A stretch of 64,000 nt of DNA from an uncultured Methylomirabilota bacterium (lineage in GTDB: Bacteria; Methylomirabilota; Methylomirabilia; Methylomirabilales; 2-02-FULL-66-22): assembly GCA_963705305.1 (NCBI GenBank), contig OY970067.1, positions 2,528,001 through 2,592,000 of the forward strand. Reading direction: 5' to 3'. The translations under genes and the position numbers were made by a program. The first letter of the stretch is position 1, and every line of letters starts with the position of its first letter. A model generated the notes under the pieces. That model was not told where the DNA came from. It made no database searches and saw only the letters and a list, made by a program, of their open reading frames with translations. Of the stretch, positions 858 to 54,133 are shown piece by piece.

Positions 858-1568
858 GTGAGAAGCGTGACCGATGAGCCGGGGGCGGCGATCGAGCGGA
901 TGTTCTCGGCCATCGCCCCCCGCTACGACCTCCTGAACCGCTTACTGAGCGCAGGACGGGATCGTGTGTGGCGGCGTAGGGCGATCCGGGCCACCGATCT
1001 TCCCGCGCAGGGCCGGCTGCTGGATGTGTGCGCCGGGACGGCCGATATGGTGCTGGAGGCGGGCCGGCAGTTTCCCAAGGCGCGAATCCACGGGGTGGAC
1101 TTCAGCCGTCCCATGCTGGCGCGGGGGCTGGCCAAGGTCCAGGCCGCGGGGCTGGGGGGACGGGCGGCCCTGGAGGAGGCCCGGGCCGAGGCCCTGCCAT
1201 TTCCGGACGAGGCCTTTGACGCGGCGACGGTGGCCTTCGGCCTGCGGAACGTGCCGGATCGCCGGCGGGCGCTGACCGAGATGCAACGGGTGCTGCGTCC
1301 CGGCGGGCGGGCCGTCGTCCTGGATTTTGTCACGCCGCCGGGTCGGATCTTTCGCGGGGCGTATCTCTGGTACTTCCAGCGCGTCCTGCCGCGGATTGGC
1401 CGGTGGGTCTCGGGGCATCCCTCCGCCTACGCCTACCTCCCGGCTTCGGTGGCCGACTTTCCCGCTCCGGTAAAGCTGGCCGCCTTGATGCGGGAGGTCG
1501 GCTTCGTCGAGGTGACCCACACGCTCTATACCGGAGGGATCGTCGCCGTGCATGTCGGCGTGAAATGA
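858..1568 (+). CDS. ubiE: Demethylmenaquinone methyltransferase UbiE/MenG
   Basis: MFSAIAPRYDLLNRLLS, LDVCAGTAD SAM motif, AFGLRNV, AYAYLPASV. Confidence 0.9.
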   Translation: MRSVTDEPGAAIERMFSAIAPRYDLLNRLLSAGRDRVWRRRAIRATDLPAQGRLLDVCAGTADMVLEAGRQFPKARIHGVDFSRPMLARGLAKVQAAGLGGRAALEEARAEALPFPDEAFDAATVAFGLRNVPDRRRALTEMQRVLRPGGRAVVLDFVTPPGRIFRGAYLWYFQRVLPRIGRWVSGHPSAYAYLPASVADFPAPVKLAALMREVGFVEVTHTLYTGGIVAVHVGVK

Positions 1569-1639
1569 ACAGCCTGGGGGAAAGCGGGTTCTTCGGCACC
1601 CTTTAGCTCTCAGCGGGCAGCCTGCGCCGAGTGCATCGG

Positions 1640-1662
1640 GCTGACCGCTGACTGCTGACTGC
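1640..1662 (+). repeat. Short GCTGAC(C/T) heptamer tandem repeat
   Basis: GCTGACC GCTGACT GCTGACT GC between ubiE and the prenyltransferase gene. Confidence 0.45.
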
Positions 1663-1677
1663 CGTGAGCGGTGAGGA

Positions 1678-2535
1678 ATGCTCCAGAAGCTGCGAACGTA
1701 CCTCGAGATGATCCGCTTCTCGCACACGGTCTTCGCCCTGCCGTTCGCCCTCATGGGGGCGGTGCTGGCGGCGGGGGGGATCCCCGCGGGGCGGGCGCTC
1801 TCCTGGATCCTGGTGGCCATGGTGGGGGCCAGGAGCGGCGCCATGGGGATGAACCGGATCGCCGACCGCCATCTGGACGCCATGAATCCCCGCACGCGGA
1901 GGCGGGCCATCCCGCAGGGACGCATTGCGGCCGGCGAGGCGCTCGCGTTCGTGCTGGTCTCGTTCGGGATCTTCCTGCTGGCGGCGTGGATGCTCAACCC
2001 GCTCTGCTTCACCCTGGCCCCTGGGGCCATCGTGGTCCTCGCCGGGTACTCCTACACGAAGCGCTTCACCGTCCTGTCCCACGTCATCCTAGGGCTGTCC
2101 CTGGGGCTGGCGCCCCTGGGCGCGTGGATCGCCGTCACCGGCGCCATTGCCCTGGCTCCGCTGGTTCTCGGCGCGGCGGTCCTGTTCTGGGTGGCGGGCT
2201 TCGATGTCGTCTATGCGCTGCTGGATGTTGAATTCGACCGGCAGACCGGCCTGTTTTCCCTGCCTGCGCGCTTCGGCGAGCAGCGCGGCCTGGCCGTGGC
2301 GCGGCTCTTCCACGGTCTCACCGTCCTCTGCCTGGGCCTGCTGATCCCGCTGCTGGATCTGGGGAGGGTGTATGCGGCGGGCCTGGTGCTGGCGGCAGGC
2401 CTCCTGGTCTACCAGCACATCCTGCTGCGCCGGCATGGATTGACCAAGGTCGAGGTCGCCTGCTTCAACGTCAACGCCATCCTGAGCCTGGGGATGCTGG
2501 CCTGCACCCTGGGCGATCTCCTGCTGTCAAAATAG
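1678..2535 (+). CDS. UbiA-family prenyltransferase (MqnP/UbiA-like)
   Basis: HTVFALPFA, NRIADRHLDAMNPRT, YSYTKRFT, GFDVVYALLDVEFD; multiple hydrophobic helices. Confidence 0.88.
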   Translation: MLQKLRTYLEMIRFSHTVFALPFALMGAVLAAGGIPAGRALSWILVAMVGARSGAMGMNRIADRHLDAMNPRTRRRAIPQGRIAAGEALAFVLVSFGIFLLAAWMLNPLCFTLAPGAIVVLAGYSYTKRFTVLSHVILGLSLGLAPLGAWIAVTGAIALAPLVLGAAVLFWVAGFDVVYALLDVEFDRQTGLFSLPARFGEQRGLAVARLFHGLTVLCLGLLIPLLDLGRVYAAGLVLAAGLLVYQHILLRRHGLTKVEVACFNVNAILSLGMLACTLGDLLLSK

Positions 2536-2600
2536 AGGACCGGCCTAGCTGACAGCCAGGCCGGTCTCCCCGCAGGGCTTTCGCGATCCGGAGACGCCGC

Positions 2601-3665
2601 CTACTTGGCTCCCAGCTTCTGGATGATGCGGCGGTAGTTCAGGCGGTCGTGCAGCAGCTCCCGAGCGCGGGCAACCTTCTTGGTCTCGCGGATTCGGATG
2701 CGGCCGAGCACGGCCTCCAGCCTCTCCACCGTGGTGAGGGTGTCGTAGCGGGCGATGATCATCGGGACCCCCAGCTCTTGGGCACGCCCGATGATGACGG
2801 CGTTGGGCATCTGATCGCCGGTCAGGACCAGGCACTTGGTGGAGGTCTCCAGGGCGGCCAGCTGGATGTCCGCATGGCTTCCCCCGGTGATGACGGCCTT
2901 GTTGGGCAGCTTCTGGAAGTACCCCAGGGCGTGCTCCACATCCATGGCGCCGACGCTGAACCGCTCCACGAACTCGTCCAGCTTGTCCTCGCAACAGATC
3001 ACCTTGCCGTCCAGGGTGTCCACGATCTGGCGAACGGTGATGGCGTCCAGCAGCCGGTCCAGGGGCAGGACCCCCAGGACCTCGATCCCCTTGGTCCCGA
3101 GGAAGGGAACGATCATCTGCTCGACCTCGGGCAGCCCCTGCGGCGGGACGCGGTTCAGGATGACCCCGACAAGCTGGTCCCCCAGAAGCTCCTTGGCCAT
3201 GAGGATGCAATCCGCACACACCTCGTTGACGTAGGGATCGACCAGCAGCACGGGGGCCTTGAACTGTCTGGCCAGCCAGGGTCCCGAGATCCCCAGGAAA
3301 GCTCCATCCCACAAGGTGCCTGCGCCGCCGATGAGGACGACGTCTTTCCCCTGGGAGACGGCCTCAAATGCCCGCTGGATCCTCGGCCAGATGTCCTCCA
3401 CCTCGCCGCGCAGCCCCCGGGCCACCAGATCCTGCGTCAGGACCACCGGACAGATCTGCTCCAGGGGCTCGGACAGGCCGAGGGCCTCGCGGAGGAACTG
3501 GGCGTCGGCGTCCACGACCTTGCCCTTGACGGTCGTCGGCTGCTTGCCCAGCGGCTTCAGGTAGCCCACCGAGTAGCCGTTCTCCTGGAGGGCCGGCGCC
3601 AGGCCGATGCTGATCATCGTCTTCCCGGAATTCTCGTGGGTCGACCCTATGAATAAGGTCCGCAT
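2601..3665 (-). CDS. Phosphotransacetylase-family protein (BioD-like P-loop plus DRTGG domain, no catalytic Pta domain)
   Basis: Start MRTLFIGSTHENSGKT, GYLKPLG, VGAM and ITGG motifs; only the last 354 aa of the 1039 aa ORF look real. Confidence 0.8.
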   Translation of the reverse strand: MRTLFIGSTHENSGKTMISIGLAPALQENGYSVGYLKPLGKQPTTVKGKVVDADAQFLREALGLSEPLEQICPVVLTQDLVARGLRGEVEDIWPRIQRAFEAVSQGKDVVLIGGAGTLWDGAFLGISGPWLARQFKAPVLLVDPYVNEVCADCILMAKELLGDQLVGVILNRVPPQGLPEVEQMIVPFLGTKGIEVLGVLPLDRLLDAITVRQIVDTLDGKVICCEDKLDEFVERFSVGAMDVEHALGYFQKLPNKAVITGGSHADIQLAALETSTKCLVLTGDQMPNAVIIGRAQELGVPMIIARYDTLTTVERLEAVLGRIRIRETKKVARARELLHDRLNYRRIIQKLGAK

Positions 3666-3787
3666 CGCATGTCTCCCTTCTTGCGGAAGGGACGCCCGAC
3701 CCCGGAGGGCCGGCGTTGCCCTCGATGTCGAAGTCCGCTTTACCGCGTGCGGCGGGCCGGGGGCCCGTCCCGGCCGCCGGGCGCCGC

Positions 3788-5881
3788 TCAGCCGGCCAAG
3801 GCCAGGCGGGCGTCGATGGCCACGCCGCCGCCGCCTTCGGGCTTGACCAGCAGGGGGTTGATATCCAGCTCCAGGATCTCGGGGAAATCCAGACAAAGCT
3901 GCGAGAGTCTCCCCAGGGCGTCCACGATCGCGGCCAGGTCCGAGGGCTTCTCCCCGCGGACCCCGCCCAGCAAGGGGAAGGAGCGGATCTCGCGGATCAT
4001 GGCGTTGGCCTCGTCGGGCCCGATGGGGGCCACACGGAACGCCACGTCCTTGAGCACCTCGACGTAGATCCCCCCCAGCCCGAACATCAGCAGCGGTCCG
4101 AACTGGGGATCCCGGGTCATGCCCAGGATGACTTCCTTGCCTCCCACCACCATCTCCTGGATGGCGATCCCATGAATGGCCGCATTGGGGAAGAGACGCC
4201 GGACGTTGGCGTCGATGGCGGCAAAGCCCTCGGCGACGGACGCCGCGTCCGCCAGTCCCAGGCGGACGCCGCCCACGTCGGTCTTGTGCAGAATGTCGGG
4301 GGACACGATCTTGAGGGCCACCGGGAAGCCAATCCGTTCTGCCGCGGCCGCGGCCTCGTCCACGGTGCGGGTCACCACGTTCTGCGGCAGGCGGAAGCCG
4401 TAGGCGGCGATGACCTCGCGGGCCTCCCGCTCGCCGAGCTGCGTCCGGCCCTGCCGGCGGGACTCCCGGAACACCGCCGCCACCCGCTCCCGGTCCACGG
4501 GATACTCGCGCGGCGGCGCGAGCTTGGTGTCCAGCCACTGGCGGTACTTGACCATGGCTTCGAAGGTCCGGACCGCGGGCTCCGGGTACGGGTACTGCGG
4601 CACGCCGTAGTTCCGGAGGATCACCCGGGCCTTGGGCAGGCTGGCCTCGCCCATGAAGGCGGTGAAGAACGGCTTGCCGACCTGCTTGGACGTCAGGCCG
4701 ACCACCTCGGCGAACTTCTCGTTGTCCGTCATGGCCTGGGGGGTAGACAGGGCCAGGACGCCGTCCACGTTGGGATCGGCGGCGACGATCTCCAGGGCCG
4801 CCTTGTAGCGATCCTCCCTGGCGTCCCCGATGACGTCCACCGGGTTGTAGAACGCCGCGGTGGGCGGCAGGACGGCCCGCAGTCGCTCGACGGTCGCGGG
4901 AGTCAGGCTGGCCATATTGGCCACGGAGCGCTCCACCGCGTCGGCGGCGATGATCCCGGGACCGCCGGCGTTGGTCACGATGCAGAGGTGCGGCCCTTTG
5001 GGCAGCGGCTGGTAGGCGAAGGCCCGGGCGAAGTTGAACAGCTCCTCGATGCTCTCGGCCCGGAGGACGCCGGATTGATGGAAGGCGGCAGTGAAGGCCT
5101 TCTCGGAGCCGGCGAGGGTGCCGGTGTGCGAGGAGGCGGCGCGGGCACCCGCGGCCGTGCCGCCCGACTTCACGATGATGAGCGGCTTGTTCCGGCTGGC
5201 GACCTTGGCGGCCTCCATGAAGCGGCGGCCGTCCTCGACCCCCTCGATGTAGCCGATCACCACGCGGGTCTCCGGATCCGCACCCAGGGCTTCGATGAAG
5301 TCCACCTCGGAGGTGTCGGCCTTGTTTCCCAGGCTGATGAACTTGGAGAATCCCACGTCGTTGCCGATGGCCCAGTCCAGGATGGCCGTGCAGAGGGCGC
5401 CCGACTGGGAAAGGAAGGCGATCTCGCCCACCGGGGGCATGCCGGCGGCGAAGGTGGCGTTGAGCCGGCTCTTGGTGTCGATGATCCCGAGACAGTTCGG
5501 GCCCACCACCCGCACCCCCAGTTCTCGCACCCGCGTCCGCAGGGCCCGCTCGAGCTCGGCCCCCTCGCCGCCGACCTCCTTGAAACCGGCCGAGATCACC
5601 ACGGCATGGCGGATGCCGCGGGCCGCGCAGGCCTCCAGCGCCGGCAGGCAGGCTTTGGGAGGAATGACCAGGACAGCCAGGTCGGCGTCGGGCGGCACGT
5701 CGCCGAGGTCCGGGACGCACTTCAGACCGAGAATCTCGCTGGCCTTAGGATTGACGGGGTAGATGGGGCCCGGAAAGCCGCCCCGGACGAGGTTGAGGAC
5801 GATGCTGAAGCCGACCTTCCCCTCCTCCCGAGAGGCTCCAATGACCGTCACGGCCTTGGGTTTGAAAAATCCATCGAGCAT
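3788..5881 (-). CDS. ADP-forming acyl-CoA synthetase, alpha-beta fused (CoA-binding domain first, ATP-grasp last)
   Basis: VIGAS, GPNCLG, SQSGA, ASSHTG phospho-His motif, NPVD, ILHKTDVGGV, DPQFGP, LDINP. Confidence 0.9.
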   Translation of the reverse strand: MLDGFFKPKAVTVIGASREEGKVGFSIVLNLVRGGFPGPIYPVNPKASEILGLKCVPDLGDVPPDADLAVLVIPPKACLPALEACAARGIRHAVVISAGFKEVGGEGAELERALRTRVRELGVRVVGPNCLGIIDTKSRLNATFAAGMPPVGEIAFLSQSGALCTAILDWAIGNDVGFSKFISLGNKADTSEVDFIEALGADPETRVVIGYIEGVEDGRRFMEAAKVASRNKPLIIVKSGGTAAGARAASSHTGTLAGSEKAFTAAFHQSGVLRAESIEELFNFARAFAYQPLPKGPHLCIVTNAGGPGIIAADAVERSVANMASLTPATVERLRAVLPPTAAFYNPVDVIGDAREDRYKAALEIVAADPNVDGVLALSTPQAMTDNEKFAEVVGLTSKQVGKPFFTAFMGEASLPKARVILRNYGVPQYPYPEPAVRTFEAMVKYRQWLDTKLAPPREYPVDRERVAAVFRESRRQGRTQLGEREAREVIAAYGFRLPQNVVTRTVDEAAAAAERIGFPVALKIVSPDILHKTDVGGVRLGLADAASVAEGFAAIDANVRRLFPNAAIHGIAIQEMVVGGKEVILGMTRDPQFGPLLMFGLGGIYVEVLKDVAFRVAPIGPDEANAMIREIRSFPLLGGVRGEKPSDLAAIVDALGRLSQLCLDFPEILELDINPLLVKPEGGGGVAIDARLALAG

Positions 5882-37745: not shown

Positions 37746-39398
37746 TCAGCGCATCTCGATGTACCCGCAGGGACACTGCTCCGCGCACTTCTTGCAACCC
37801 GTGCAGAACTCCAGCTTGATCCGGTAGGGCTGGCCGGCCTCCGCCGGCTTTTGGATGGCCCGCTCCTGGCAGTACTGCCAGCAGGTATCGCACTCGAAGC
37901 ACATGCCGCAGCTCAGGCAGCGCTTGGCCTCGGCCAGCGCCTGGTCCTCGGCGAGGCCGATGGTCACCTCGCGGTCCGGATCGGCGAACCGCTCCTCCAC
38001 CGGGATCGTCGCCGCGACGGACCGCGGCGCCTTGGGGTAGAATTCCGGTCGCAGCGTCTCCTTGGTGGCCACGGGCGGGGGTGCCGGCTCGGGCTCTTGG
38101 ATGCCGCGGAGCCGCCGATGAATGGTCTCGGCGACGCGACGACCCCGGAAGACGGCCGTGCTCACGATCCCCAGATCCAGGTCGTCCGGCGCGGCGAACG
38201 TGCCGGGGACGGCCGTCTCCCCGTGCGCGTCGGTGGAGACAGATCCTCCCTCGCCCCGTAGGGACTCCAGGCCGACCGTGTCCCGCTCGGCCTTGCCCGC
38301 CACGATGATCGTGCTGGCCGGCAGGAAGAGCTCTGCTTCGGCCCCCCGGGGCTGTCCCGCGTCGGCAACGCGTCGGCAGGTAAGGCCGGTTGCTCGCCCT
38401 GCTTCCATGCGAACGGCCGAAGGAACCGCCTGGCCCTGGATGGCGACCCCCTCGCGCTTGGCCTCTTCGATCTCCTGCTTGCCGGCGGGCATGTCCTCCG
38501 CCTTGCGGCGCGATACGATCGTGACGTGCGCCCCCAGGCGGCGTGCCACGCGGGCCGCATCCAGGGCCGTATCGCCCCCCCCGACCACCAGAACCTCTGT
38601 TCCCACCTCCAGGGGCTCGCCGCCGTTCATGCGGTGCAGGAGCTCGGCCGCGGACAGGACGTTGGGGGCGTCCCCGCCGGGCAGATCCAGGACGACCCCG
38701 CGGTGCGCCCGGATGCCGACGAAAATTGCGGCGTACTCCTGGCGGAGGGCATCCAGTGTGATGTCCTTGCCGAGGGCGCTGTTGCATTGAAAGGCCACCC
38801 CGAGGGTTTCCAGGCGGGCAATCTCTCCGTCCAGCACCGGGCGGGGCAGGCGGAAGGCTGGGATCCCGTACCGCAGCATGCCGCCGAGCTTGGGGAAGGC
38901 CTCGAACACCGTGACCGGATAGCCGCGCCGCGCCAACTGGTAGGCACAGGAGAGGCCTGCAGGTCCGGAACCGATGACCGCGATTCGCTCGGTCTGTCGT
39001 TCCTCGGTGATCGAGCGCAGGGGGAGCTGCCGCTGGAGGGCGTAGTCCCCGACGGCCCGTTCGAGGCAGTTGATCGCGACCGGCTCGTCGACCTGTAGGC
39101 GGCTGCATTGCAACTCGCACTGGTGAGGGCAGGCGCGGCCGCAGCTCGCCGGCAGCGGGTTCTTGTCGGCGAGGAGATAGAACGCCTCCTCCATCGCCTG
39201 GGAGAGAGATTTTCCGTGCTTCTCCGCCAGGGCCAGCGTCATGATGACCGAGCGAATGTCCTGATGGTTGGGGCAGGCCTTGGAGCAGGCCGGGGTCCTC
39301 TCGCTGAAGTACGGGCGCATGGGCGAACCGCCCCGGTCGCTTGGTGGCTGGCCTCCCCCGGATCCGAGTTTGCGCACCTTCTTGACGACAACGGCCAC
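37746..39398 (-). CDS. dsrL: DsrL-type iron-sulfur flavoprotein (divergent)
   Basis: TPACSKACP, NPLPASCGRACPHQC, GSGPAGL, GGGDTA, RCLSCGMCFECDTC, CTGCKKCAEQCPCGYI; GTG start after AAGGAG; directly upstream of dsrA. Confidence 0.8.
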   Translation of the reverse strand: MAVVVKKVRKLGSGGGQPPSDRGGSPMRPYFSERTPACSKACPNHQDIRSVIMTLALAEKHGKSLSQAMEEAFYLLADKNPLPASCGRACPHQCELQCSRLQVDEPVAINCLERAVGDYALQRQLPLRSITEERQTERIAVIGSGPAGLSCAYQLARRGYPVTVFEAFPKLGGMLRYGIPAFRLPRPVLDGEIARLETLGVAFQCNSALGKDITLDALRQEYAAIFVGIRAHRGVVLDLPGGDAPNVLSAAELLHRMNGGEPLEVGTEVLVVGGGDTALDAARVARRLGAHVTIVSRRKAEDMPAGKQEIEEAKREGVAIQGQAVPSAVRMEAGRATGLTCRRVADAGQPRGAEAELFLPASTIIVAGKAERDTVGLESLRGEGGSVSTDAHGETAVPGTFAAPDDLDLGIVSTAVFRGRRVAETIHRRLRGIQEPEPAPPPVATKETLRPEFYPKAPRSVAATIPVEERFADPDREVTIGLAEDQALAEAKRCLSCGMCFECDTCWQYCQERAIQKPAEAGQPYRIKLEFCTGCKKCAEQCPCGYIEMR

Positions 39399-39477
39399 GC
39401 GTGGAGTCTCCTTTCCCCAGCTTTTCGCGTCCTTCCGTGGACGCGTAGAATACGGCTTTCCGCCATCAAGGATGGCA

Positions 39478-39493
39478 GGCAAGGCATTTGCCA
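39478..39493 (-). promoter_or_regulatory. sigma54 promoter of the dsr cluster
   Basis: Minus strand TGGCAA-ATGCC-TTGCC, 80 bp upstream of dsrL. Confidence 0.7.
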
Positions 39494-39558
39494 GGTCCGC
39501 CGAGGGCTGCAAAAGCTTGCGAAATGGACCTTGGGGGAAAGAAGCACAGACGGGGCAC

Positions 39559-39605
39559 GTTACCGAAAGGTAACGGGCGAGGCTGGCACGTTACCTTCCG
39601 GTAAC
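39559..39605. promoter_or_regulatory. Tandem palindromic upstream activator sites GTTACC-N4-GGTAAC
   Basis: GTTACCgaaaGGTAAC (39559-39574) and GTTACCttccGGTAAC (39590-39605), 31 bp apart. Confidence 0.8.
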
Positions 39606-39797
39606 ATGGACCGGCCAAGTAAGCCCGAGACGCTTCAACTTCTTCCACAGGGTCTTTCGGCTGATCCCTAGAATCTGTGCCGCCCGAGCCCGGTTCCCCT
39701 CGGTCAGTTGGAGCACAGAAACGATGTGCTCACGTTCTGCCTGTTCCCGCACCTTCTGGAGAGGCCGGCCCATTATCTCATGAACAACAGGCACCAC
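39591..39797 (-). CDS. Stand-alone Fis-type HTH protein
   Basis: AGGAG-N7-GTG start; [30 protein letters not shown]. Confidence 0.8.
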
Positions 39798-40108
39798 CCG
39801 AACACTCCTACATTCATCCCAGAGAAGACGCTATGCGGCGAGCCCTCGCACATCAATACCGGGCAGCCCCCGGCACGCCCCCCGGTCCGTGCCTCGCAGG
39901 GACAGACAAACCCACCACCCTCGAGGCTGCCGCCTCGATGCCTCAAAATGTGGGCGGCGCACCTCCTATCCGATATGCCAGGAGCGGACAACCAAGATCC
40001 GCCAGGACCCGCCTGCCTCCTCCCTACGGGGGTTCCGGCCGGATCCCCGGGCTCGCTCCACGGCGCGAACTCGGGAATCCGGCCTGGGCGGTTATCGGAC
40101 CCGGCGGG

Positions 40109-40282
40109 CTAGCCGGGGAAGATGGCGGTGCCGATAATCACGAGCACCACCAAGAGCACCAACCCGAGAACCAGGCTCCACGTGACCAGCTTGCGTTCGA
40201 CCGGCAAGAATGGCTCGTAGGAGATTTTTGCCATCTCTTCCGCGAGCTTTTCTCCCGTCGGAGCGGCGTGTGGTTGCGCCAT
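40109..40282 (-). CDS. Small single-TM protein downstream of the YeiH-family transporter
   Basis: GGAGG RBS; EPFLPVERKLVTWSLVLG then a hydrophobic helix. Confidence 0.7.
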   Translation of the reverse strand: MAQPHAAPTGEKLAEEMAKISYEPFLPVERKLVTWSLVLGLVLLVVLVIIGTAIFPG

Positions 40283-40349
40283 GGTGTTCCCTCCTGTCGT
40301 TGCTGAGAACCGCTCACGCCCCCGATCGTGCAGGGACGCCCTTGTCACG

Positions 40350-41792
40350 TCAGACGGTCGGCGGCACGATCCCGTGGAAGAAGACCCACGAGATCACCAG
40401 CCCGATCCAGATGATGAACCCGAACAGGCACACCAGGTACACGAGCGCCAGCTTGCCGATGCCCTCCTCCCACAGCTTCTTGAAGTTCGAGACGAGCCCG
40501 ATGGTGAAGAAGGTCATGGCGAAGAAGAGCACGCGGAACACGTTGCTCTCTCCGGTCGCCAGCTTGGCCGCACCCAGGATGCTCGGCACATTGAGGACCA
40601 GAAAGAGCATCACCAGGAACGTCAGGGCGTACCCGATCACGAACTTGGGGAAGCGCTCCCAGATCTGCCCCGCCGAGACGGTCTCGCCCGGCTTCTTGTC
40701 GATGGCGTAGCACCAGATCAGGGCCAGCACGAAGGCCCAGACGCCGATGAAGATGTCGATGAAGATCTTGATCGTGGTAGCCGTCATCAGGATCCAGCCT
40801 TCCTTGTAGTTCACCCCTGACGCGGCCAGAGCCTTGGCCCGGATCAGGGCATCCACGATCGCCCCGCTGGCCACCGCGGCGCCGTCCGTCTTGACGGCCA
40901 GACCCATCCAGGCCCCTGCGACCATGGGCTGATGGTACAGGAACGTCTCTGCGATGAACGGCAGGAACAGCAGTTCGACCACCGCGAAGAGGACCACCAG
41001 CGACGAGACCATTACGGGAATCATCGGGCGGGACTTGACCGCCGCGCCGGTGGCGATGGCTGCCGAGACGCCGCAGATGGAGATGCCGGACGCCAGGGGG
41101 ACGGCCCATTCCCGACTGAACCCGAAGGCCTTGCGGGCGATGAGATACACCAGGGACCAGAAGATCAGGTAGGCGACGACGATGGCCGAGAACCCGAGAA
41201 ATATGATCGCCTTGGCGAGGCCGGTGGCGCCCGCGGCGCTGACGCCCAGGGACGCCCCCAGGATCACGATGGCGGTCTTGATGTACCACTCGGGTCGGGT
41301 GGCCTCCTTGAGGGCCGCCGTGATTCCGGGAAAGAAGTTGCTCAGGATCAGGCCCACCAGGAGGGCCACGACATATCCGGACTCACCGGTCAACCCCAGG
41401 GCCCAGGAGATGTGGAAGGCCTTGAGCTGGTTGGGGGTGGCCGCAATGTAGGCCCAGCTGCCGACCAGCCAGCACAGATAGCTGACCCAGAAGATGACCG
41501 TGAAGCCGAGGGCGAATTCCCCGAAGTTGAACTTCAGCGCCTTGGCCCCCACCCCCATGATGACCAGCATGAAGATGTAAGTGCACACCAGGGAAAGGAT
41601 CCCCGGCATCCCGGCGTAGTTCTTCGACAGCGGGGCTATGGACTTGGTGATATCGGTCCACGTGTTGGTGGCCACGCTCCAGCCGAGGAGATCCACCCCC
41701 GCAAGAACACCCAGGCCCACCAGGAAGACGAAGAGCCCAATCCACAAGGACCACCAGTCTTCGTTGTTTCGGATGAACTTTGTCCTCTCCAT
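40350..41792 (-). CDS. YeiH/putative sulfate exporter family transporter
   Basis: NEDWW, RPEWYIKTAIV, ASGISICGVSAAIAT, WERFPKFV; many TM helices. Confidence 0.85.
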   Translation of the reverse strand: MERTKFIRNNEDWWSLWIGLFVFLVGLGVLAGVDLLGWSVATNTWTDITKSIAPLSKNYAGMPGILSLVCTYIFMLVIMGVGAKALKFNFGEFALGFTVIFWVSYLCWLVGSWAYIAATPNQLKAFHISWALGLTGESGYVVALLVGLILSNFFPGITAALKEATRPEWYIKTAIVILGASLGVSAAGATGLAKAIIFLGFSAIVVAYLIFWSLVYLIARKAFGFSREWAVPLASGISICGVSAAIATGAAVKSRPMIPVMVSSLVVLFAVVELLFLPFIAETFLYHQPMVAGAWMGLAVKTDGAAVASGAIVDALIRAKALAASGVNYKEGWILMTATTIKIFIDIFIGVWAFVLALIWCYAIDKKPGETVSAGQIWERFPKFVIGYALTFLVMLFLVLNVPSILGAAKLATGESNVFRVLFFAMTFFTIGLVSNFKKLWEEGIGKLALVYLVCLFGFIIWIGLVISWVFFHGIVPPTV

Positions 41793-41872
41793 TTTTCTAC
41801 CCCCCACTCGAGATGAACGAGTACGTCCGTTACGCAGAGGACCGCGCCCTTCCATTGTAAATGGAAAGAGGT

Positions 41873-41888
41873 AGCAAGGACCTTGCCG
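41873..41888 (-). promoter_or_regulatory. sigma54 promoter of the YeiH-family transporter
   Basis: Minus strand CGGCAA-GGTCC-TTGCT. Confidence 0.68.
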
Positions 41889-41951
41889 GGCCGGAGAGCC
41901 GAGGAAAATTGTATGGAAATCGTATGTTGCGAAAAAAGGGGGAAGGCCCGG

Positions 41952-41999
41952 GTTACCGCTTTGAAACGTCAGCGGGGATCGGCGTTACCGATCGGTAAC
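41952..41999. promoter_or_regulatory. Tandem GTTACC-N4-GGTAAC upstream activator sites
   Basis: GTTACCgcttTGAAAC (41952-41967, degenerate) and GTTACCgatcGGTAAC (41984-41999), 32 bp apart. Confidence 0.75.
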
Positions 42000-42013
42000 G
42001 CCGGGAGGGTTCA

Positions 42014-43114
42014 TCACAAGCCGTACAGTTTGTAACAGGTGCGGCAGGGTTCGGGGGGTGCCGTTCCAGGCTCGGATGCATCCCCGGAGAGGGCCGAAAG
42101 CCCCAGGGCACGCGTCCTTGCCTCGGAGAGGCGCGCCGCGAACTGCTGCCGGAACTGCTGATAGGCGGGACTGCTCCAGATCGCCATCAGGTCCCGATCC
42201 TTGATGTTGCCGAACCGGACCCGGGGCACGCTGAGGGATCGGCCTCCGAAATACCGCGGGATCTCGCTCTGGCCGGCCAGCCCCATGTACGTGCAGGGCG
42301 AGACCCATCCGTCGCAGGATACAAAGAGGATATCCAGGGGGTCGGCCTCGCACATTGCCGCCTCGTCGGGCTCCAGCGGGTATGACCGGAATGCCAGACC
42401 GGCCCGCTCCGCCCTCCTGCCGGCGAGCTCCACGCTCTGCGAGAAGGCCTCGCAGAGCGGCGGCGGACAATTGAAAGCCTTCAGGGCATCCTGCTCGGGG
42501 GTCACAACGTAATCGAGGTTGGTTGCGTACAGCTCGTCCGCGCCGAGGGATGCGGCTAACTCCACCGCCTGGGGCAATTCTTCCATGTTGGTTCTGGTCA
42601 TGAGATAGGAGAGTTCCACCTTGGGCGCGTCCCGCCCGTGGTCGCTGCGCAGGGCCAGGAGGCGGCGGATGTTCTCGAGGATCAGCGGGAGATCAGAGCC
42701 CACCCGAAGGCTCTCGTGCGTGCGCGGCGTGGCGCCGGCGATGGAGACCGCCAAGAGATCCAAGCGCAGGTCCACAAGTCGCCTCGCCGCGTCCGGGGTC
42801 AGCCGCATGCCGTTCGTGGTGAAGCCCACCCGGCACCCGGCGTCCTTGGCCACGGCGATCATGTCGAAGAGGCGGGGGTGGAGCAGCGGCTCGCCCCACC
42901 CCTGCAGGTGGACGTGCTTCACCCGGTCGAAGGCCCGAGCGATGCGCTGGAAAGCCTCCCACGGCAGATCCATCTCCCGCCACCGGTCCGCCAGGCCGAC
43001 CCGCGGGCACATCACGCAGCGGAGGTTGCAGCGGGAAGTTACCTCGACCTGGAAGGCCTTAAGGGTCCGCCCGCCCGTGCGATGCCGGAACCACTCGACG
43101 ACGCGCTTGACCAT
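42014..43114 (-). CDS. Radical SAM protein with SPASM/twitch domain
   Basis: CNLRCVMC, GWGEPLLHP, TTNG, C..DGWVSPC..FGNI..CRTC. Confidence 0.85.
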   Translation of the reverse strand: MVKRVVEWFRHRTGGRTLKAFQVEVTSRCNLRCVMCPRVGLADRWREMDLPWEAFQRIARAFDRVKHVHLQGWGEPLLHPRLFDMIAVAKDAGCRVGFTTNGMRLTPDAARRLVDLRLDLLAVSIAGATPRTHESLRVGSDLPLILENIRRLLALRSDHGRDAPKVELSYLMTRTNMEELPQAVELAASLGADELYATNLDYVVTPEQDALKAFNCPPPLCEAFSQSVELAGRRAERAGLAFRSYPLEPDEAAMCEADPLDILFVSCDGWVSPCTYMGLAGQSEIPRYFGGRSLSVPRVRFGNIKDRDLMAIWSSPAYQQFRQQFAARLSEARTRALGLSALSGDASEPGTAPPEPCRTCYKLYGL

Positions 43115-44255: not shown

Positions 44256-44321
44256 GGTCCACCTCGTGGCTTTCAGCGGCCGGCCGCCGGCAGCTAAACC
44301 TCGAACCGAAAAAACTGCTTA

Positions 44322-44469
44322 ACCGCCATGACGCCAAGGCATCGCGGTCTATAGAGTCCGGCGGTTTTGATTCGAGGGTAGTGGAACGCCCCCCAGGGGG
44401 CGTGGTGCGGTTCCAATCCTTTTGGCATGTTGCCTATTCCAGCCAGGGCATTCTTGGCGCCTTGGCGGT
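44322..44469. repeat. Intergenic imperfect inverted repeat pair (REP-like)
   Basis: ACCGCCATGACGCCAAG (44322-44338) versus CTTGGCGCCTTGGCGGT (44453-44469), 15/17 complementary. Confidence 0.5.
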
Positions 44470-44496
44470 GAGAGTTCTTCGGAATGGGGCTAAACG

Positions 44497-45840
44497 CTAG
44501 TCAAGGCCGAGCTGCTTCATCTTCTTCCAGAGTGTCTTCCGGCTGATGCCCAGGATCTCTGCCGCCTTCTGTCGCTGCCCGCCGACGCTGTGGAGGACCT
44601 CTTGAAGGTAGCGGCGCTCCGTCTCCCGGACGGCGCCTATCAGGGGCTGGGCTGCGAGGCTCCCCAGCTCCGCGGACACCGGAGCGGCCTCCGGGAAGAT
44701 ATCCTCTGCCGTGAGCACCGGGTTCTTGGTCAGCGTGACGGCGCGCTGGATGCTGGCCTCCAGCTCCCGGACGTTTCCGGGCCAGGCATAGGCGAGCAAC
44801 TGCCGGGAGGCCTCGGGAGCGATGCCATGGATGGTCTTGCCCAGCGGCCGCGCGTACTTTTCGAGAAAATGCTCTGCCAGGGGCAGGACGTCGTCTTTCC
44901 GTTCCCGCAAAGGCGGGAGCAGGATGGGGATCACCTTGAGGCGATAGAACAGATCTTCCCGCAGGCGCCCCGCCAGCACCTCGTCCTCCAGCCGCTTCCG
45001 CGTAGCCGAGAGCAGCCGGACATCCACCTTGATCGTCTGACTCCCGCCGATCCGCTCGAACTCCTTCTCCTGCAGGACCCGCAGGAGCTTGGCCTGGACG
45101 GCGGGCCCGAGATCCGCGACCTCGTCCAGGAACAGGGTGCCCCGATGGGCCAGCTCGAACCGCCCCTTCCGCTCCCGAATGGCGCCGGTGAAAGCGCCCT
45201 TCTCGTGCCCCAAGAGCTCCGCCTCGAGGAGTGTCTCCGGGATGGCGGCGCACGCCACCGACACCAGCGGGTAGGCCCGGCGCATACTGTGCTGATGGAT
45301 GGCCCGGGCGACGAGCTCTTTCCCCGTTCCCGTCTCGCCCTGGATGAGGACGGTGGCGTCACTCTTGGCCACGGTGGCGATGAGCTCGCAGATCCGCGCC
45401 ATCGCCTCGCTGACGTAGATGAGGTCGGCGAACCGCTGAACCTGTCCGGCCCCCGTCCGCTCGCGCGGAGCCCGGCCGGATTGGACCAGCAGGCCCCGCA
45501 GCAGCGTGAGCAGCTCCTCCGAAGGAAACGGCTTCAGCAGGTAATCCGTGGCTCCGGCTTTCATCGCCGCCACGGCCGACTGGATCGTGCCGAAGGCCGT
45601 CATCATAATGGCAAGGCCCTGGGGGTTCGCCGCCTTGAAGGTCTGCAGCAGCGTCAGGCCGTCCACCTTGGGGAGCTTGAGGTCAAAGAGCGCCACGTCG
45701 AAGCTCCGGGCCTGGATGAGGCGAAGGCCCTCCGCCCCATCGGAGCCGCTGGTGACCTCGAACCCTTCCTCGCCAAGGTCGTTCGCCAGTGTCAACCGGA
45801 GGATCGGCTCGTCCTCTACCAGCAGGATGGTCGGTCGCAT
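44497..45840 (-). CDS. NtrC-family sigma54-dependent response regulator
   Basis: Receiver domain, [42 protein letters not shown]. Confidence 0.95.
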   Translation of the reverse strand: MRPTILLVEDEPILRLTLANDLGEEGFEVTSGSDGAEGLRLIQARSFDVALFDLKLPKVDGLTLLQTFKAANPQGLAIMMTAFGTIQSAVAAMKAGATDYLLKPFPSEELLTLLRGLLVQSGRAPRERTGAGQVQRFADLIYVSEAMARICELIATVAKSDATVLIQGETGTGKELVARAIHQHSMRRAYPLVSVACAAIPETLLEAELLGHEKGAFTGAIRERKGRFELAHRGTLFLDEVADLGPAVQAKLLRVLQEKEFERIGGSQTIKVDVRLLSATRKRLEDEVLAGRLREDLFYRLKVIPILLPPLRERKDDVLPLAEHFLEKYARPLGKTIHGIAPEASRQLLAYAWPGNVRELEASIQRAVTLTKNPVLTAEDIFPEAAPVSAELGSLAAQPLIGAVRETERRYLQEVLHSVGGQRQKAAEILGISRKTLWKKMKQLGLD

Positions 45841-45847
45841 GGCTGCC

Positions 45848-47303
45848 TCAGTCTCCGCTGGCGGGGAGGGCCACGGTCACGGTGGTCCCCCTGCCGACTT
45901 CACTGTCCACGGCAATGGAGCCCCCGTGAGCCCTGACGATTCCGTAGGTTACGGAGAGGCCCAGCCCCGTTCCCTTCCCGACCTCCTTGGTGGTGAAGAA
46001 CGGATCGAAGATGCGCGGAAGGTTGTCGGGAGGGATGCCGATGCCGGTGTCGGCGACGCGGACCTCGACGAACGGTTTGATCGCCCTCCGGCAGAGGCTG
46101 CCGTCGATTGTGAGCGTTCCCCCCTCGGGCATGGCCTCGATGGCGTTCATCAGGATGTTGAGGAAGACCTGCTCGAGCTGGTGCGGATCCGCCAAAAGAC
46201 CGGGAGCCGCCCTCTCCATGGCCAGGGAGAAGGTGATCCGCCTGGCCGTGAGCTCGTGCTCGAGGAGGGTCAGGCAGCGCTGGAGCAGGGGGGTCAATTC
46301 CACGGGGAGAAGCCGCGGCTTGGCCTCCCGGGCGAAATTCAGGAGCTGCCCGACGGTCCGGCCGATCCGGTCCAATCCCTCCCGCAGCATCTCCAGGTAT
46401 TGCACCCGCTGCGCCTCGTCCCGCGCCCCTTTCAGGAGCGTCCGCACGCAGTTCTGCATCCCGGCGATGGGGTTGTTGATCTCATGGGCGATGCCCGCGG
46501 CCATCGTGCCCAGGGACGCCAGGCCCTGGGCCCGCCGGATCTCGTCCGCATGGCGGTCTTCCAGCTGTCGTCGGGCCTCCGCCAATCGAGCCACCATGGC
46601 GTTGAGGCTCTTGGCCAGAACGTCCCAGCTCGTCCCGGCTGTCGTCGGGAACGCGGGCGGTGAGATCGCCGGCCTCCACCAGGCTCATCGTCCGTGACAG
46701 GGTATGAATCCGCTGCCCGGCCACCAGGGAGAAGAACAGCCAGATCATTCCGCCGGCGGCGATGAGTCCCGCGACGCCGATGACGATCATGTACATCCAG
46801 TGGGGATCGGCCCACAAATCCGCCGAGGGAACATACACCTGCGCATTCAAGTAGCCGAGGACCGCGGTCTTGCGCTGGTGGCAGCGGGCGCAGCTAGGAC
46901 GATTCGGGATGGGGAGGAACACTCCCACGGTTCGCTCCCGGAGGTTCCAGACCGGCTCCGAGAAGGTTGCATCCTTGGGCAATTCTTCCGGCGAAAGAAC
47001 CTGCCCCTCCTCTTCCGGCTTGCTCGCGCGGAGGATGGTGCCGTCGGCGGCCACGATCCGAATGCCGGCCAGGACCGGCTGGCGCCCGATCCGGGTGAGA
47101 ATTGCCTGGACGACGTGCGTCTCTCCGCGCTCCATCGCCCGGGCCAGCGCCCGGACTGATACCTCGGCAATCAGATCGGCCTCTTGCCTGGCCATCAGCA
47201 TCAGACGATTCACCTGGATGCTCGAGGCGAGGATGGTGTAGACGAGGATGACCAGCAGGAGGACGGCCCCGATGCCGAGGATCATCTTCATCCGCAGCGA
47301 CAT
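45848..47303 (-). pseudogene. Sensor histidine kinase (periplasmic CXXCH, HAMP, HisKA, HATPase), frameshifted near 46620
   Basis: Two overlapping ORFs; removing one T restores [34 protein letters not shown]; may be a sequencing error. Confidence 0.8.
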
Positions 47304-52768: not shown

Positions 52769-54133
52769 TCAGTCCTCGCCCAGCTTGATATGGTACCGGC
52801 GGATCTTGCGGTAGAGGGTCCGGCGGTCGATCCCCAGGATGGAGGCGGCGCGGATCTGATGCCCCTTGGTGCGCCGGAGAATCATGGCGATGTAATCCCT
52901 CTCCAGATCCTCCAGCGTGGCCTCTTTGGCCAGGGCGCGCTCCAGCGGATCGGTGCCGCCGGCCAGGTGGGGGGGGAGGTCGCCCGGCTGGATGGCGGGG
53001 TCGCGTCCCAGGGTCACCGCCCGCTCGATGATATTCTCCAGCTCGCGGACGTTGCCGGGCCAGCCGTAGCTCAGGAGGATGGCCATGGCCTCCTTGGAGA
53101 TCTCCCGGATATTGGGGTTGGATTCCTGCGAGAACTTCTGCATGAAGTGATTGGCCAGCAGCGGGATGTCCTCCTGCCGATCCTTGAGATCCGGCAGGGT
53201 GATGGGCACGACATTCAGCCGGTAGTACAGATCCTCCCGGAAGCTCCCCTCCTCCACGGCCTTCTTCAGGTCCCGGTTGGTGGCGGCGATGACCCGGACG
53301 TCGATCTTGATGGTCCGGGTCCCCCCCACCCGCTCGATCTCCCGCTCCTGGAGGGCGCGGAGGATCTTCGCCTGGAGGTCCAGGCGCATGGAGCCCACCT
53401 CGTCCAGGAACAGGCTCCCCCCGGTGGCGAGCTCGAACTTCCCCACCTTGGTGGCGATGGCCCCGGTGAAGGCCCCCTTCTCATGGCCGAACAGCTCCGA
53501 CTCCAGGAGCTCGGAGGGGATGGCGGCGCAGTTGACGGCGACGAAGGCCTTGGAAACCCGCGGGCTGTTGTAGTGGACGGCCTTGGCCACCAGCTCCTTT
53601 CCCGTCCCGCTCTTGCCGTAGACCATCACGGTGCTGCGGCTGCCCGCCACCTGCTCGATCAGGCCGAACACCTCCTGCATGGCGCGGCTCTTCCCGATCA
53701 GGTTCTCGAAATGGTAGCGCGTGCGGAGCTCCTGCCGCAGGCTGCTCACCTCGTGCCGCAGCCGCCGCTCCTCCAGGGCCTTGTCGATGGTCAGGAGCAT
53801 CTCGTCGATCTTGAAGGGCTTGTTGATGTAGTCGTATGCTCCTTCCTTCACGGCCTGCACCGCCTGGTCGATGGACCCGAAGGCCGTCATGATGATGACA
53901 ACGGTGTCCGGATTCAGCTCCTTGATGGCCTTCAGCGCGTCCATGCCGCTCATCCCCGGCATGCGGACGTCCGTCACGACCAGATCCATGGGCTCTTTCT
54001 CGAGCACGGCCAGGGCTTCCGCCCCGTCCCCGCAGGCCGCGACCTGATAGCCGCTCTTGTCCAGGACCTTGGCCAGCAGGCCCCGCATCTGCTCTTCGTC
54101 GTCCACAACCAGGATGCGCGCTTTCGTCGTCAT
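52769..54133 (-). CDS. NtrC/AtoC-family sigma54-dependent response regulator
   Basis: ILVVDDE, GKSGTGKE, GAFTGA, WPGNVREL, HTH ILGIDRRTLYRK. Confidence 0.95.
   Translation of the reverse strand: MTTKARILVVDDEEQMRGLLAKVLDKSGYQVAACGDGAEALAVLEKEPMDLVVTDVRMPGMSGMDALKAIKELNPDTVVIIMTAFGSIDQAVQAVKEGAYDYINKPFKIDEMLLTIDKALEERRLRHEVSSLRQELRTRYHFENLIGKSRAMQEVFGLIEQVAGSRSTVMVYGKSGTGKELVAKAVHYNSPRVSKAFVAVNCAAIPSELLESELFGHEKGAFTGAIATKVGKFELATGGSLFLDEVGSMRLDLQAKILRALQEREIERVGGTRTIKIDVRVIAATNRDLKKAVEEGSFREDLYYRLNVVPITLPDLKDRQEDIPLLANHFMQKFSQESNPNIREISKEAMAILLSYGWPGNVRELENIIERAVTLGRDPAIQPGDLPPHLAGGTDPLERALAKEATLEDLERDYIAMILRRTKGHQIRAASILGIDRRTLYRKIRRYHIKLGED

Follow-up and report, generated by a model that had tools for sequence, protein, structure and literature searches.

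At glnAp2-type enhancers, which are activated by NtrC, two dimer sites lie about three helical turns apart, roughly 100–140 bp upstream of a -24/-12 promoter. An arrangement of this type occurs twice in a 64,000-nucleotide stretch of DNA from an uncultured Methylomirabilota bacterium (GenBank assembly GCA_963705305.1, contig OY970067.1, positions 2,528,001 to 2,592,000 of the forward strand; hereafter the window, with positions counted from its first nucleotide), once before the dissimilatory sulfite reductase (dsr) operon and once before a gene for a YeiH-like transporter. The locus resembles the glnAp2/NtrC system in its two dyad sites 30–32 bp apart at about -100 and -130, its -24/-12 element, its regulator of the type REC-AAA+(GAFTGA)-Fis-type helix-turn-helix (HTH), and the kinase adjacent to that regulator. 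Unlike in that system, the site is GTTACC-N4-GGTAAC, the targets are the dsr operon and a transporter, an extra gene that encodes only a DNA-binding domain overlaps the enhancer, and the regulator reaches 404.8 bits with the NtrC model, for which the cut-off is 558.6 bits. The conserved pair of enhancer-dependent sigma-54 promoters before dsr and the transporter gene is real. It is also probable, judging from the sequences compared below, that the dsr operon and the yeiH-like operon are activated through these twin sites by the regulator encoded at 44497–45840, with the small DNA-binding protein as a putative feedback competitor. The first-pass annotation of this DNA had proposed sigma-54 control of the dsr cluster; the second promoter, the small HTH gene overlapping the distal site, and the occurrence of the same cassette before non-sulfur enzymes elsewhere are new beyond it.

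Among other two-component systems, AtoSC and ZraSR share the core domain order of regulator and kinase with the present pair, and AtoC and AtoS are the top-scoring models for the two proteins, although the scores are far below the equivalog cut-offs, the kinase here carries a CxxCH periplasmic sensor domain of ~135 aa, and the targets are others. The sigma-54 regulome of Desulfovibrio vulgaris Hildenborough comprises many enhancer-binding proteins with sites predicted by comparative genomics (Kazakov et al., 2015; PMC4641369). As far as the main text of that paper describes it, the comparison is with a sulfate or sulfite reducer that likewise has predicted enhancer-binding protein sites, and the terms dsr, sulfite, thiosulfate, and GTTAC are absent from that main text. 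No description of the present motif for dsr was found in the open-access literature, in keeping with the remark in the first-pass annotation that none was known for a dsrAB operon; the same literature yielded no paper treating dsrL together with sigma-54 and nothing relevant on dsrAB or dsrT with enhancer-binding or transcriptional regulators. A paper on peatland Acidobacteria relates DsrV and DsrWa to siroheme, and the passages searched in that paper and in a 2023 review of dsrAB diversity mention neither sigma factors nor promoters. A 2025 cross-phylum survey of sigma-54 mentions only an assimilatory sulfite reductase subunit.

The dsr operon and its promoter comprise the following features.

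Start of dsrL to ~27646, minus strand: dsr operon, in the order dsrL-A-B-N-C-T-M-K-O-P.
37746 to 39398, minus strand: dsrL, the leading gene of the operon, with its Pfam domains, a match to NCBIfam PRK12771 (506 bits), and a conserved GTG start and ribosome site.
39479 to 39493, minus strand: sigma-54 type -24/-12 element TGGCAAATGCCTTGC of the dsr operon, with a predicted transcription start near 39467.
39559 to 39574, no strand: proximal enhancer site of the dsr promoter, a perfect GTTACC-N4-GGTAAC (GTTACCGAAAGGTAAC).
39590 to 39605, no strand: distal enhancer site of the dsr promoter, the perfect palindrome GTTACCTTCCGGTAAC.

The GG and GC doublets of the -24/-12 element (39493–39479 on the minus strand) have the canonical sigma-54 spacing (TGGCA-N6-TTGC), and the C of the -12 GC (39479) lies 81 bp from the GTG start of dsrL (39398), a start that is fixed because the ribosome site GAAAGGAGA and the N-terminus V-x-V-V-V-K-K are conserved in 9/9 loci. 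The two palindromes are 31 bp apart. Measured to the -12 C, their centres are at 87.5 and 118.5 bp; for transcription starting near 39467, these would be positions of about -100 and -130. The layout drawn in the first-pass annotation, with an element ~80 bp before dsrL and twin perfect palindromes ~100 and 130 bp upstream of the inferred start, is correct in coordinates and geometry, and its reading as an enhancer-dependent promoter is borne out by the presence of rpoN and by conservation of the layout in relatives. The genome holds one rpoN gene (a single Sigma54_DBD match, E 2e-61, in an open frame of 483 aa), and a consensus scan of positions 39300–42100 found no sigma-70-like site (0 vs. 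0.5 expected).

The palindromes clearly exceed chance. Four matches with at most two mismatches occur in the window vs. 0.40 expected, a number that none of 100 shuffles reached. The whole genome (5.65 Mb) contains three perfect copies, all at the dsr/yeiH locus, where a mononucleotide model expects 0.17; there is no copy with one mismatch, and there are 53 with two. Taken by itself, the -24/-12 string is no more frequent in the window than expected by chance (17 matches with at most one mismatch vs. 13.0 expected, and 18/100 shuffles reach 17); this element is significant because of its conservation and its fixed distance from the palindromes in 9/9 dsrL loci. A composite pattern consisting of the palindrome, 58–72 nt, and GGCA-N6-TTGC occurs once in the window vs. 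0.00 expected.

Scans of the genome and of homologous dsr loci, suggested with the first-pass annotation, give a consistent picture. When 41 related genomes (G000 included) were searched for the DsrL N-terminus, orthologues with 58–76% identity came up in eight genomes of the genus. All eight have a palindrome pair 30–31 bp apart, and YGGCA-N6-TTGC follows 79–81 bp beyond the start of the proximal site; the layout also recurs, ahead of dsrL, in at least 15 metagenome contigs. In the alignment of dsrL promoters, conservation is confined to the half-sites, the -24/-12 element and a short patch preceding it, the ribosome site, and the start codon, while the N4 loops and the spacer vary. The perfect palindrome is found in exactly those 9 of the 21 genus genomes that carry dsrL and in none of the 12 that do not (reversed control, 0–1 per genome). 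A CAAGC-TTTGC patch at 39505–39525 (minus strand), ~16 nt upstream of the dsrL -24 element, is partly conserved and is also seen in L003–L008. The genome has four genes of the HU/IHF family, and an IHF site is not claimed for this patch, which fits the IHF core loosely and is absent at the yeiH promoter.

The second promoter lies upstream of the YeiH-like gene, and its features are as follows.

40109 to 40348, minus strand: open reading frame (ORF) of 79 aa, flanked by yeiH and the small HTH gene, with one membrane helix at the C-terminus.
40350 to 41855, minus strand: gene for a YeiH-family (PF03601) membrane protein (Pfam E 4.5e-21), downstream of the second promoter.
41874 to 41888, minus strand: second sigma-54 type -24/-12 element CGGCAAGGTCCTTGC, preceding the YeiH-like gene.
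41952 to 41967, no strand: proximal enhancer site of the second promoter, read on the minus strand as GTTTCA-N4-GGTAAC, with a degenerate left half (2 mismatches).
41984 to 41999, no strand: distal enhancer site of the second promoter, the perfect palindrome GTTACCGATCGGTAAC.

Here the third perfect palindrome is paired with its degenerate partner 32 bp away, and the proximal centre lies 85.5 bp from the -12 C. The footprint is conserved in 9/9 loci in the same manner as that of dsrL, with the near-invariant CGGCAAGGTCCTTGCTA as the -24/-12 element in the yeiH loci of 9/9 relatives. The degeneracy of the left half of the proximal site is systematic, as a GTTYCC-N4-GGTAAC form is kept in the relatives. 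A genome-wide scan for site pairs (spacing 29–33 bp, at most four mismatches in total) found only the dsr and yeiH promoters, each with a -24/-12 element 63–65 nt downstream, and the regulon therefore apparently consists of two transcription units in this genome. Genome G017 has a third twin-site promoter, before an operon of SDR, radical SAM, and GlcD genes; no sites were found at the equivalent position before the epimerase gene here (44256–44496).

The YeiH-like gene probably starts at an ATG near 41793. Its product scores 75.5 bits with PF03601 (cut-off 24.5), and 33.8 bits with NCBIfam TIGR00698, a putative sulfate exporter (cut-off 232.6). The 79-aa ORF downstream has no family match in Pfam or NCBIfam scans. 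It has homologues in G019, G020, L105, L112, L119, L129, and L146, where it accompanies one YeiH-like subtype; the other subtype (G002, G006, G007, G008, and G016) has a longer C-terminus and lacks the 79-aa ORF.

Beyond the genus, the composite pattern was found in 9 of 251 genomes of the phylum (seven in the genus and two in other families; control 0) and in 84 metagenome contigs, of which 80 were retrieved. An off-register pattern (GGCA-N7-TTGC) gave eight scattered chance matches among genome contigs, in unrelated taxa. Among 47 distinct twin-site promoters, many of which are related and hence not independent events, 33 have their two sites 31 bp apart, 11 have them 32 bp apart, and 3 have them 30 bp apart. 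Measured from the -12 C, the centre of the proximal site falls into one of three bands, 84.5–88.5 (34 promoters), 94.5–97.5 (9), and 107.5–108.5 bp (4), with none between; successive bands differ by about one helical turn, as expected for looping from one face of the helix. The extended site consensus is Y-GTTACC-N4-GGTAAC-R. Of 67 distinct paired sites, with 51 different N4 loops, 32 are perfect, and the 38 deviating stem positions in the rest comprise 31 unpaired, 7 G-T, and no compensated positions, so that the sites appear to be conserved as sequence and not as pairing, even if the selection of sites at three or fewer mismatches disfavours double (compensated) changes and to that extent counts against the argument.

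Three genes near the promoters encode the proteins that may read these sites or control their reading.

39591 to 39797, minus strand: small HTH_8 gene (Fis/NtrC-tail type), encoding 68 aa from a GTG at 39797 or 60 aa from an ATG at 39773.
44497 to 45840, minus strand: NtrC-type response regulator and enhancer-binding protein (REC, Sigma54_activat, and HTH_8 domains), the predicted activator.
45848 to 47303, minus strand: sensor histidine kinase with two transmembrane segments, a periplasmic CxxCH domain, HAMP, HisKA, and HATPase.

On the minus strand the genes follow in the order kinase, regulator, SDR epimerase-like gene, radical SAM/SPASM gene, promoter region, YeiH-like gene, 79-aa membrane ORF, small HTH_8 gene, promoter region, and dsrL.

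The regulator is intact, with D53, Walker A and B motifs (GETGTGKE and LFLDEV), a GAFTGA loop, and a C-terminal HTH_8 domain. As with NtrC, it remains below the cut-offs of the other NCBIfam equivalogs, including AtoC (444.5 bits vs. 714), ZraR (380 vs. 760), and NtrX (341.3 vs. 600). The genome encodes 28 full-length enhancer-binding proteins, and this regulator alone (1/28) has the recognition helix SRKTLW. Another enhancer-binding protein gene lies in the window at 53201–53701 (minus strand; AAA+ match, open frame of 770 aa), and it was rejected as the palindrome reader because its HTH helix differs (ILGIDRRTLYRKIRR).

When loci were chosen by the DNA pattern alone, a helix of the form SRKxLW was encoded in 47 of 82 within the flanks examined, including loci of two activator lineages that are only 37–41% identical to the regulator. 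The first (group A) consists of 11 metagenome loci (L083, L092, L097, L099, L106, L120, L134, L141, L143, L145, and L149) with a single palindrome and a sigma-54 element, in which the activator has a GAFTDA loop in place of GAFTGA and the helix LGISRKNLWEKRKK; it ends 13–14 bp before the palindrome in 10 of the 11, and the frame is broken in L120. The second (group B) consists of 13 loci with a divergent kinase-regulator pair ~2.4 kb away, 10 of which show LGISRK[NSG]LWE[KR]M[KR]R in the DNA examined. Orthologues of the regulator itself, with 70–81% identity, occur in 8/9 genomes with dsrL vs. 3/12 others. In G016 and G017 the orthologue adjoins a twin site, and in G004, which lacks dsrL, it lies within 70 bp of a degenerate twin site and a sigma-54 element downstream, and no small HTH gene intervenes. 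This covariation of helix and site, together with the co-occurrence, makes the regulator at 44497–45840 the best candidate for the activator of both promoters.

The small protein consists of an HTH_8 domain only (Pfam E 1.2e-15). Its gene ends within the enhancer, since the distal palindrome (39591–39605) also encodes its last residues (V-T-x-x) and TAA stop, as in many homologous loci. Of all 28 activators, the one whose C-terminus most resembles the small protein is the regulator at 44497–45840, and the recognition helix is common to these two only. In a tree of HTH domains (48 columns), the small proteins group together with the DNA-binding domains of the regulators (97/94); the latter make up a tight clade of their own (100/100), and the domains of groups A and B form a neighbouring group (99/94); the deeper order of this tree is not settled, and one long-branch domain falls inside the small-protein/regulator group. 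The small gene is present in 9/9 loci of the genus, and a small non-AAA+ ORF with the conserved helix is present in 26/26 twin-site loci among the 82. The distance from the start of this helix to the proximal site, which lies downstream, is 109 nt in 20 of these 26 and 106–116 nt in the others. Conservation begins at the helix preceding the HTH, the N-terminal 20–30 residues being variable, and the core is under purifying selection (median dN/dS 0.14; 432 pairs, 30 sequences).

By sequence, the solved relatives of the small protein are the NtrX C-terminal domain (5m7n, E 5.8e-06) and Fis (E 7e-06 to 1e-04). It was not accepted as a Fis protein itself, scoring 37.5 bits against the Fis cut-off of 99 and having no conserved N-terminal region. 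It shares with Fis the form of a small, stand-alone protein made of an activator-type HTH_8 domain, although it is encoded beside one activator and shares a helix with it, and in this respect looks like a local paralogue, unlike a global nucleoid protein. Morett and Bork reportedly proposed in 1998 that Fis arose from an NtrC-type C-terminal domain. The homologues of the small protein form at least 127 clusters of 53–116 aa with generic names; the few named sources are metagenome-assembled genomes of Methylomirabilales, Chloroflexi, Syntrophobacteria, and Ca. Sulfotelmatobacter. A complex prediction for two copies of the protein scored 0.25 vs. a mark of 0.42, which counts neither for nor against binding. 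The gap of ~310 bp between the 79-aa ORF and the small HTH gene holds no conserved element, and so no promoter of its own is seen; the gene is predicted to be the last of the transporter operon, with putative co-transcription. Given its helix, the small protein is also predicted to bind the same palindromes as the regulator.

A role as a feedback competitor, damping or resetting the enhancer, is the least certain part of the proposal. The anti-activators NifL, PspA, FleN, and HrpV similarly modulate the output of an activator, often as feedback. These proteins contact the AAA+ domain of the activator, unlike the small protein here, which is only a DNA-binding domain and would consequently have to work through the enhancer DNA or through the DNA-binding domain of the activator. 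Anti-activation at the DNA by an enhancer decoy is, to our knowledge, undescribed for sigma-54 systems.

In its N-terminal half (about 46800–47200), the kinase has two membrane segments flanking a periplasmic domain of ~135 aa, which contains an NxPxCxxCH motif that is invariant in 7/7 orthologues; those aligned include L048, L049, L051, L113, L117, and L136. As the CxxCH is invariant in an extracytoplasmic domain, a covalently bound haem c is predicted as the sensor, and the domain may be a haem-based redox or ligand sensor. The top NCBIfam model is AtoS, at 248.3 bits (cut-off 646). The orthologues in relatives are intact, with lengths of 484–490 aa.

Similar gene sets are found before operons unrelated to dsr. 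While dsrL is directly downstream in 15 of the 26 twin-site loci (with dsrA also visible in four of these), and 3/26 are too short to assign a downstream gene, a class of five loci (class B: L068 from G051, L069 from G221, L113, L117, and L136) contains a kinase, a regulator orthologue (71–76% identity), a small HTH gene, and a twin site. The gene downstream is ArrA-like in L117 (1146.6 bits vs. a cut-off of 1600) and, as read from the sequence, begins with a twin-arginine signal in L068 and L136. In L072, L133, and L147, a pair of iron-sulfur protein and molybdoenzyme genes lies downstream of the twin site. In L051 (G004:C189, 7118–13874), the sites precede an FdnG-type formate dehydrogenase, split into 213 + 811 aa as expected at a selenocysteine TGA, followed by HmcB/HybA-like and HmcC-like proteins. 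The protein names of the small HTH homologues suggest that the cassette may travel with the dsr island into Acidobacteriota, Chloroflexota, and Desulfobacterota. In a separate case (L022, G020:C2:811000–830000), two DDE transposase genes and an altronate dehydratase-like gene lie at 1160–5830 between two copies of the small HTH gene with twin palindromes, a block upstream of dsrL that looks like an IS-mediated duplication of the regulatory unit.

Under the proposed mechanism, the membrane kinase, probably binding haem c in the periplasm, would phosphorylate the regulator, whose dimers, bound to both sites on the same face of the DNA at a distance of three helical turns, would assemble into an active ring. 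Looping of the DNA and ATP hydrolysis would then open the sigma-54 closed complex, and dsrLABNCTMK(J)OP and the transporter would be switched on together. The protein consisting only of a DNA-binding domain would compete at the palindromes and thereby damp or reset the enhancer.

Several observations weigh against this proposal. The reading frame of the kinase gene is broken by one base near 46619 (residue 229, within the HAMP region). This break is probably an assembly indel or a strain variant, as a contig of the DNA run X1, which otherwise matches, lacks one base at 46619 (depth 4.8), although that run is perhaps not independent of the assembly. No orthologue of the regulator was found in G008, where the dsr promoters are present (the genome is 76% complete), and G001 and G018 have an orthologue without dsrL or a perfect palindrome. 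The orthologue lies 48 kb from the locus in G020 and on another contig in G006, where the ~16–19 kb examined upstream contain no Sigma54_activat gene. The first-pass annotation had named the gene at 44497–45840 as the probable driver of the dsr promoter; this stands as the best candidate on helix covariation and co-occurrence, and the linkage is not syntenic in these two genomes. Moreover, the covariation of helix and site is drawn across related sequences. The cassette is not dsr-specific, and because formate dehydrogenase and ArrA-like enzymes come under it elsewhere, the signal could be something other than sulfite, which weakens the idea of a dedicated sulfite switch. Finally, the roles of competitor, co-factor, and heterodimer partner fit the data on the small protein equally well.

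The small protein could instead be a co-factor, forming mixed dimers with the regulator domain or occupying one of the two sites, and thus be needed for ring assembly or tune it. The close relationship and common helix of the two domains would suit such a partnership, as would the adjacency of the genes in class B (in the order kinase, regulator, small HTH gene, and sites) and the asymmetric proximal site of the yeiH promoter (GTTYCC...GGTAAC), which could favour a mixed occupant. We consider this unlikely, since G004 and the loci of groups A and B would appear to work without the small gene.

Alternatively, the palindromes might be read by the small HTH protein only, as a repressor or a Fis-like architectural protein, with the promoters fired by another activator that binds elsewhere or acts from solution. 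The small gene is indeed the sole DNA-binding gene always beside the sites, both in the genus and in the twin-site loci elsewhere, whereas the regulator is non-syntenic or not found in the three genomes named above. Such a division of labour is nevertheless improbable, as a twin site and sigma-54 promoter follow the regulator orthologue of G004 so closely that a small HTH gene would not fit between, an SRKxLW helix recurs in two further activator lineages that lie beside single palindromes and lack such a gene, the helix of the regulator is unique among the 28 activators of the genome, and no other conserved upstream element is present at the dsrL or yeiH promoters as an alternative enhancer.

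A role of the palindromes as RNA or single-stranded DNA hairpins at the 3' ends of the upstream genes, acting as terminators or stability elements, is highly improbable, for although both pairs overlap or start within ~15 nt of an upstream stop (that of the small HTH gene and that of the radical SAM gene ending at 42014) and each palindrome could form a 6-bp stem with a 4-nt loop, the stem sequence is near-invariant with none of the deviating positions compensated, no T-run follows either pair, a terminator scan was empty at the sites, no Rfam family matched (only a chance match with an E of 0.68), and the fixed 30–32 bp spacing with helical-turn banding would be meaningless for a terminator.

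Activation of both promoters by the regulator at 44497–45840 through the twin sites is thus the reading preferred here. A wider and more tentative suggestion, possible though somewhat doubtful, is that a three-part cassette, comprising a haem-type kinase, a sigma-54 activator, and a DNA-binding-domain-only copy that ends inside its enhancer, may travel with anaerobic respiratory operons across phyla, the mini-protein serving as an "enhancer decoy".

The control of dissimilatory sulfite reductase genes is little understood, especially in the uncultured lineages now held responsible for much of the hidden sulfur cycle in soils and sediments. The locus described here offers a concrete circuit, consisting of a 16–18 bp site, a promoter type, a candidate activator and kinase, and a two-promoter regulon that would couple dsr to a transporter. 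With the site and the helix as markers, members of the regulon can be predicted in metagenomes, which may show where dsr is treated as an inducible pathway. In addition, the DNA-binding-domain-only paralogue, found across so many protein clusters, may be a general means of tuning enhancers.

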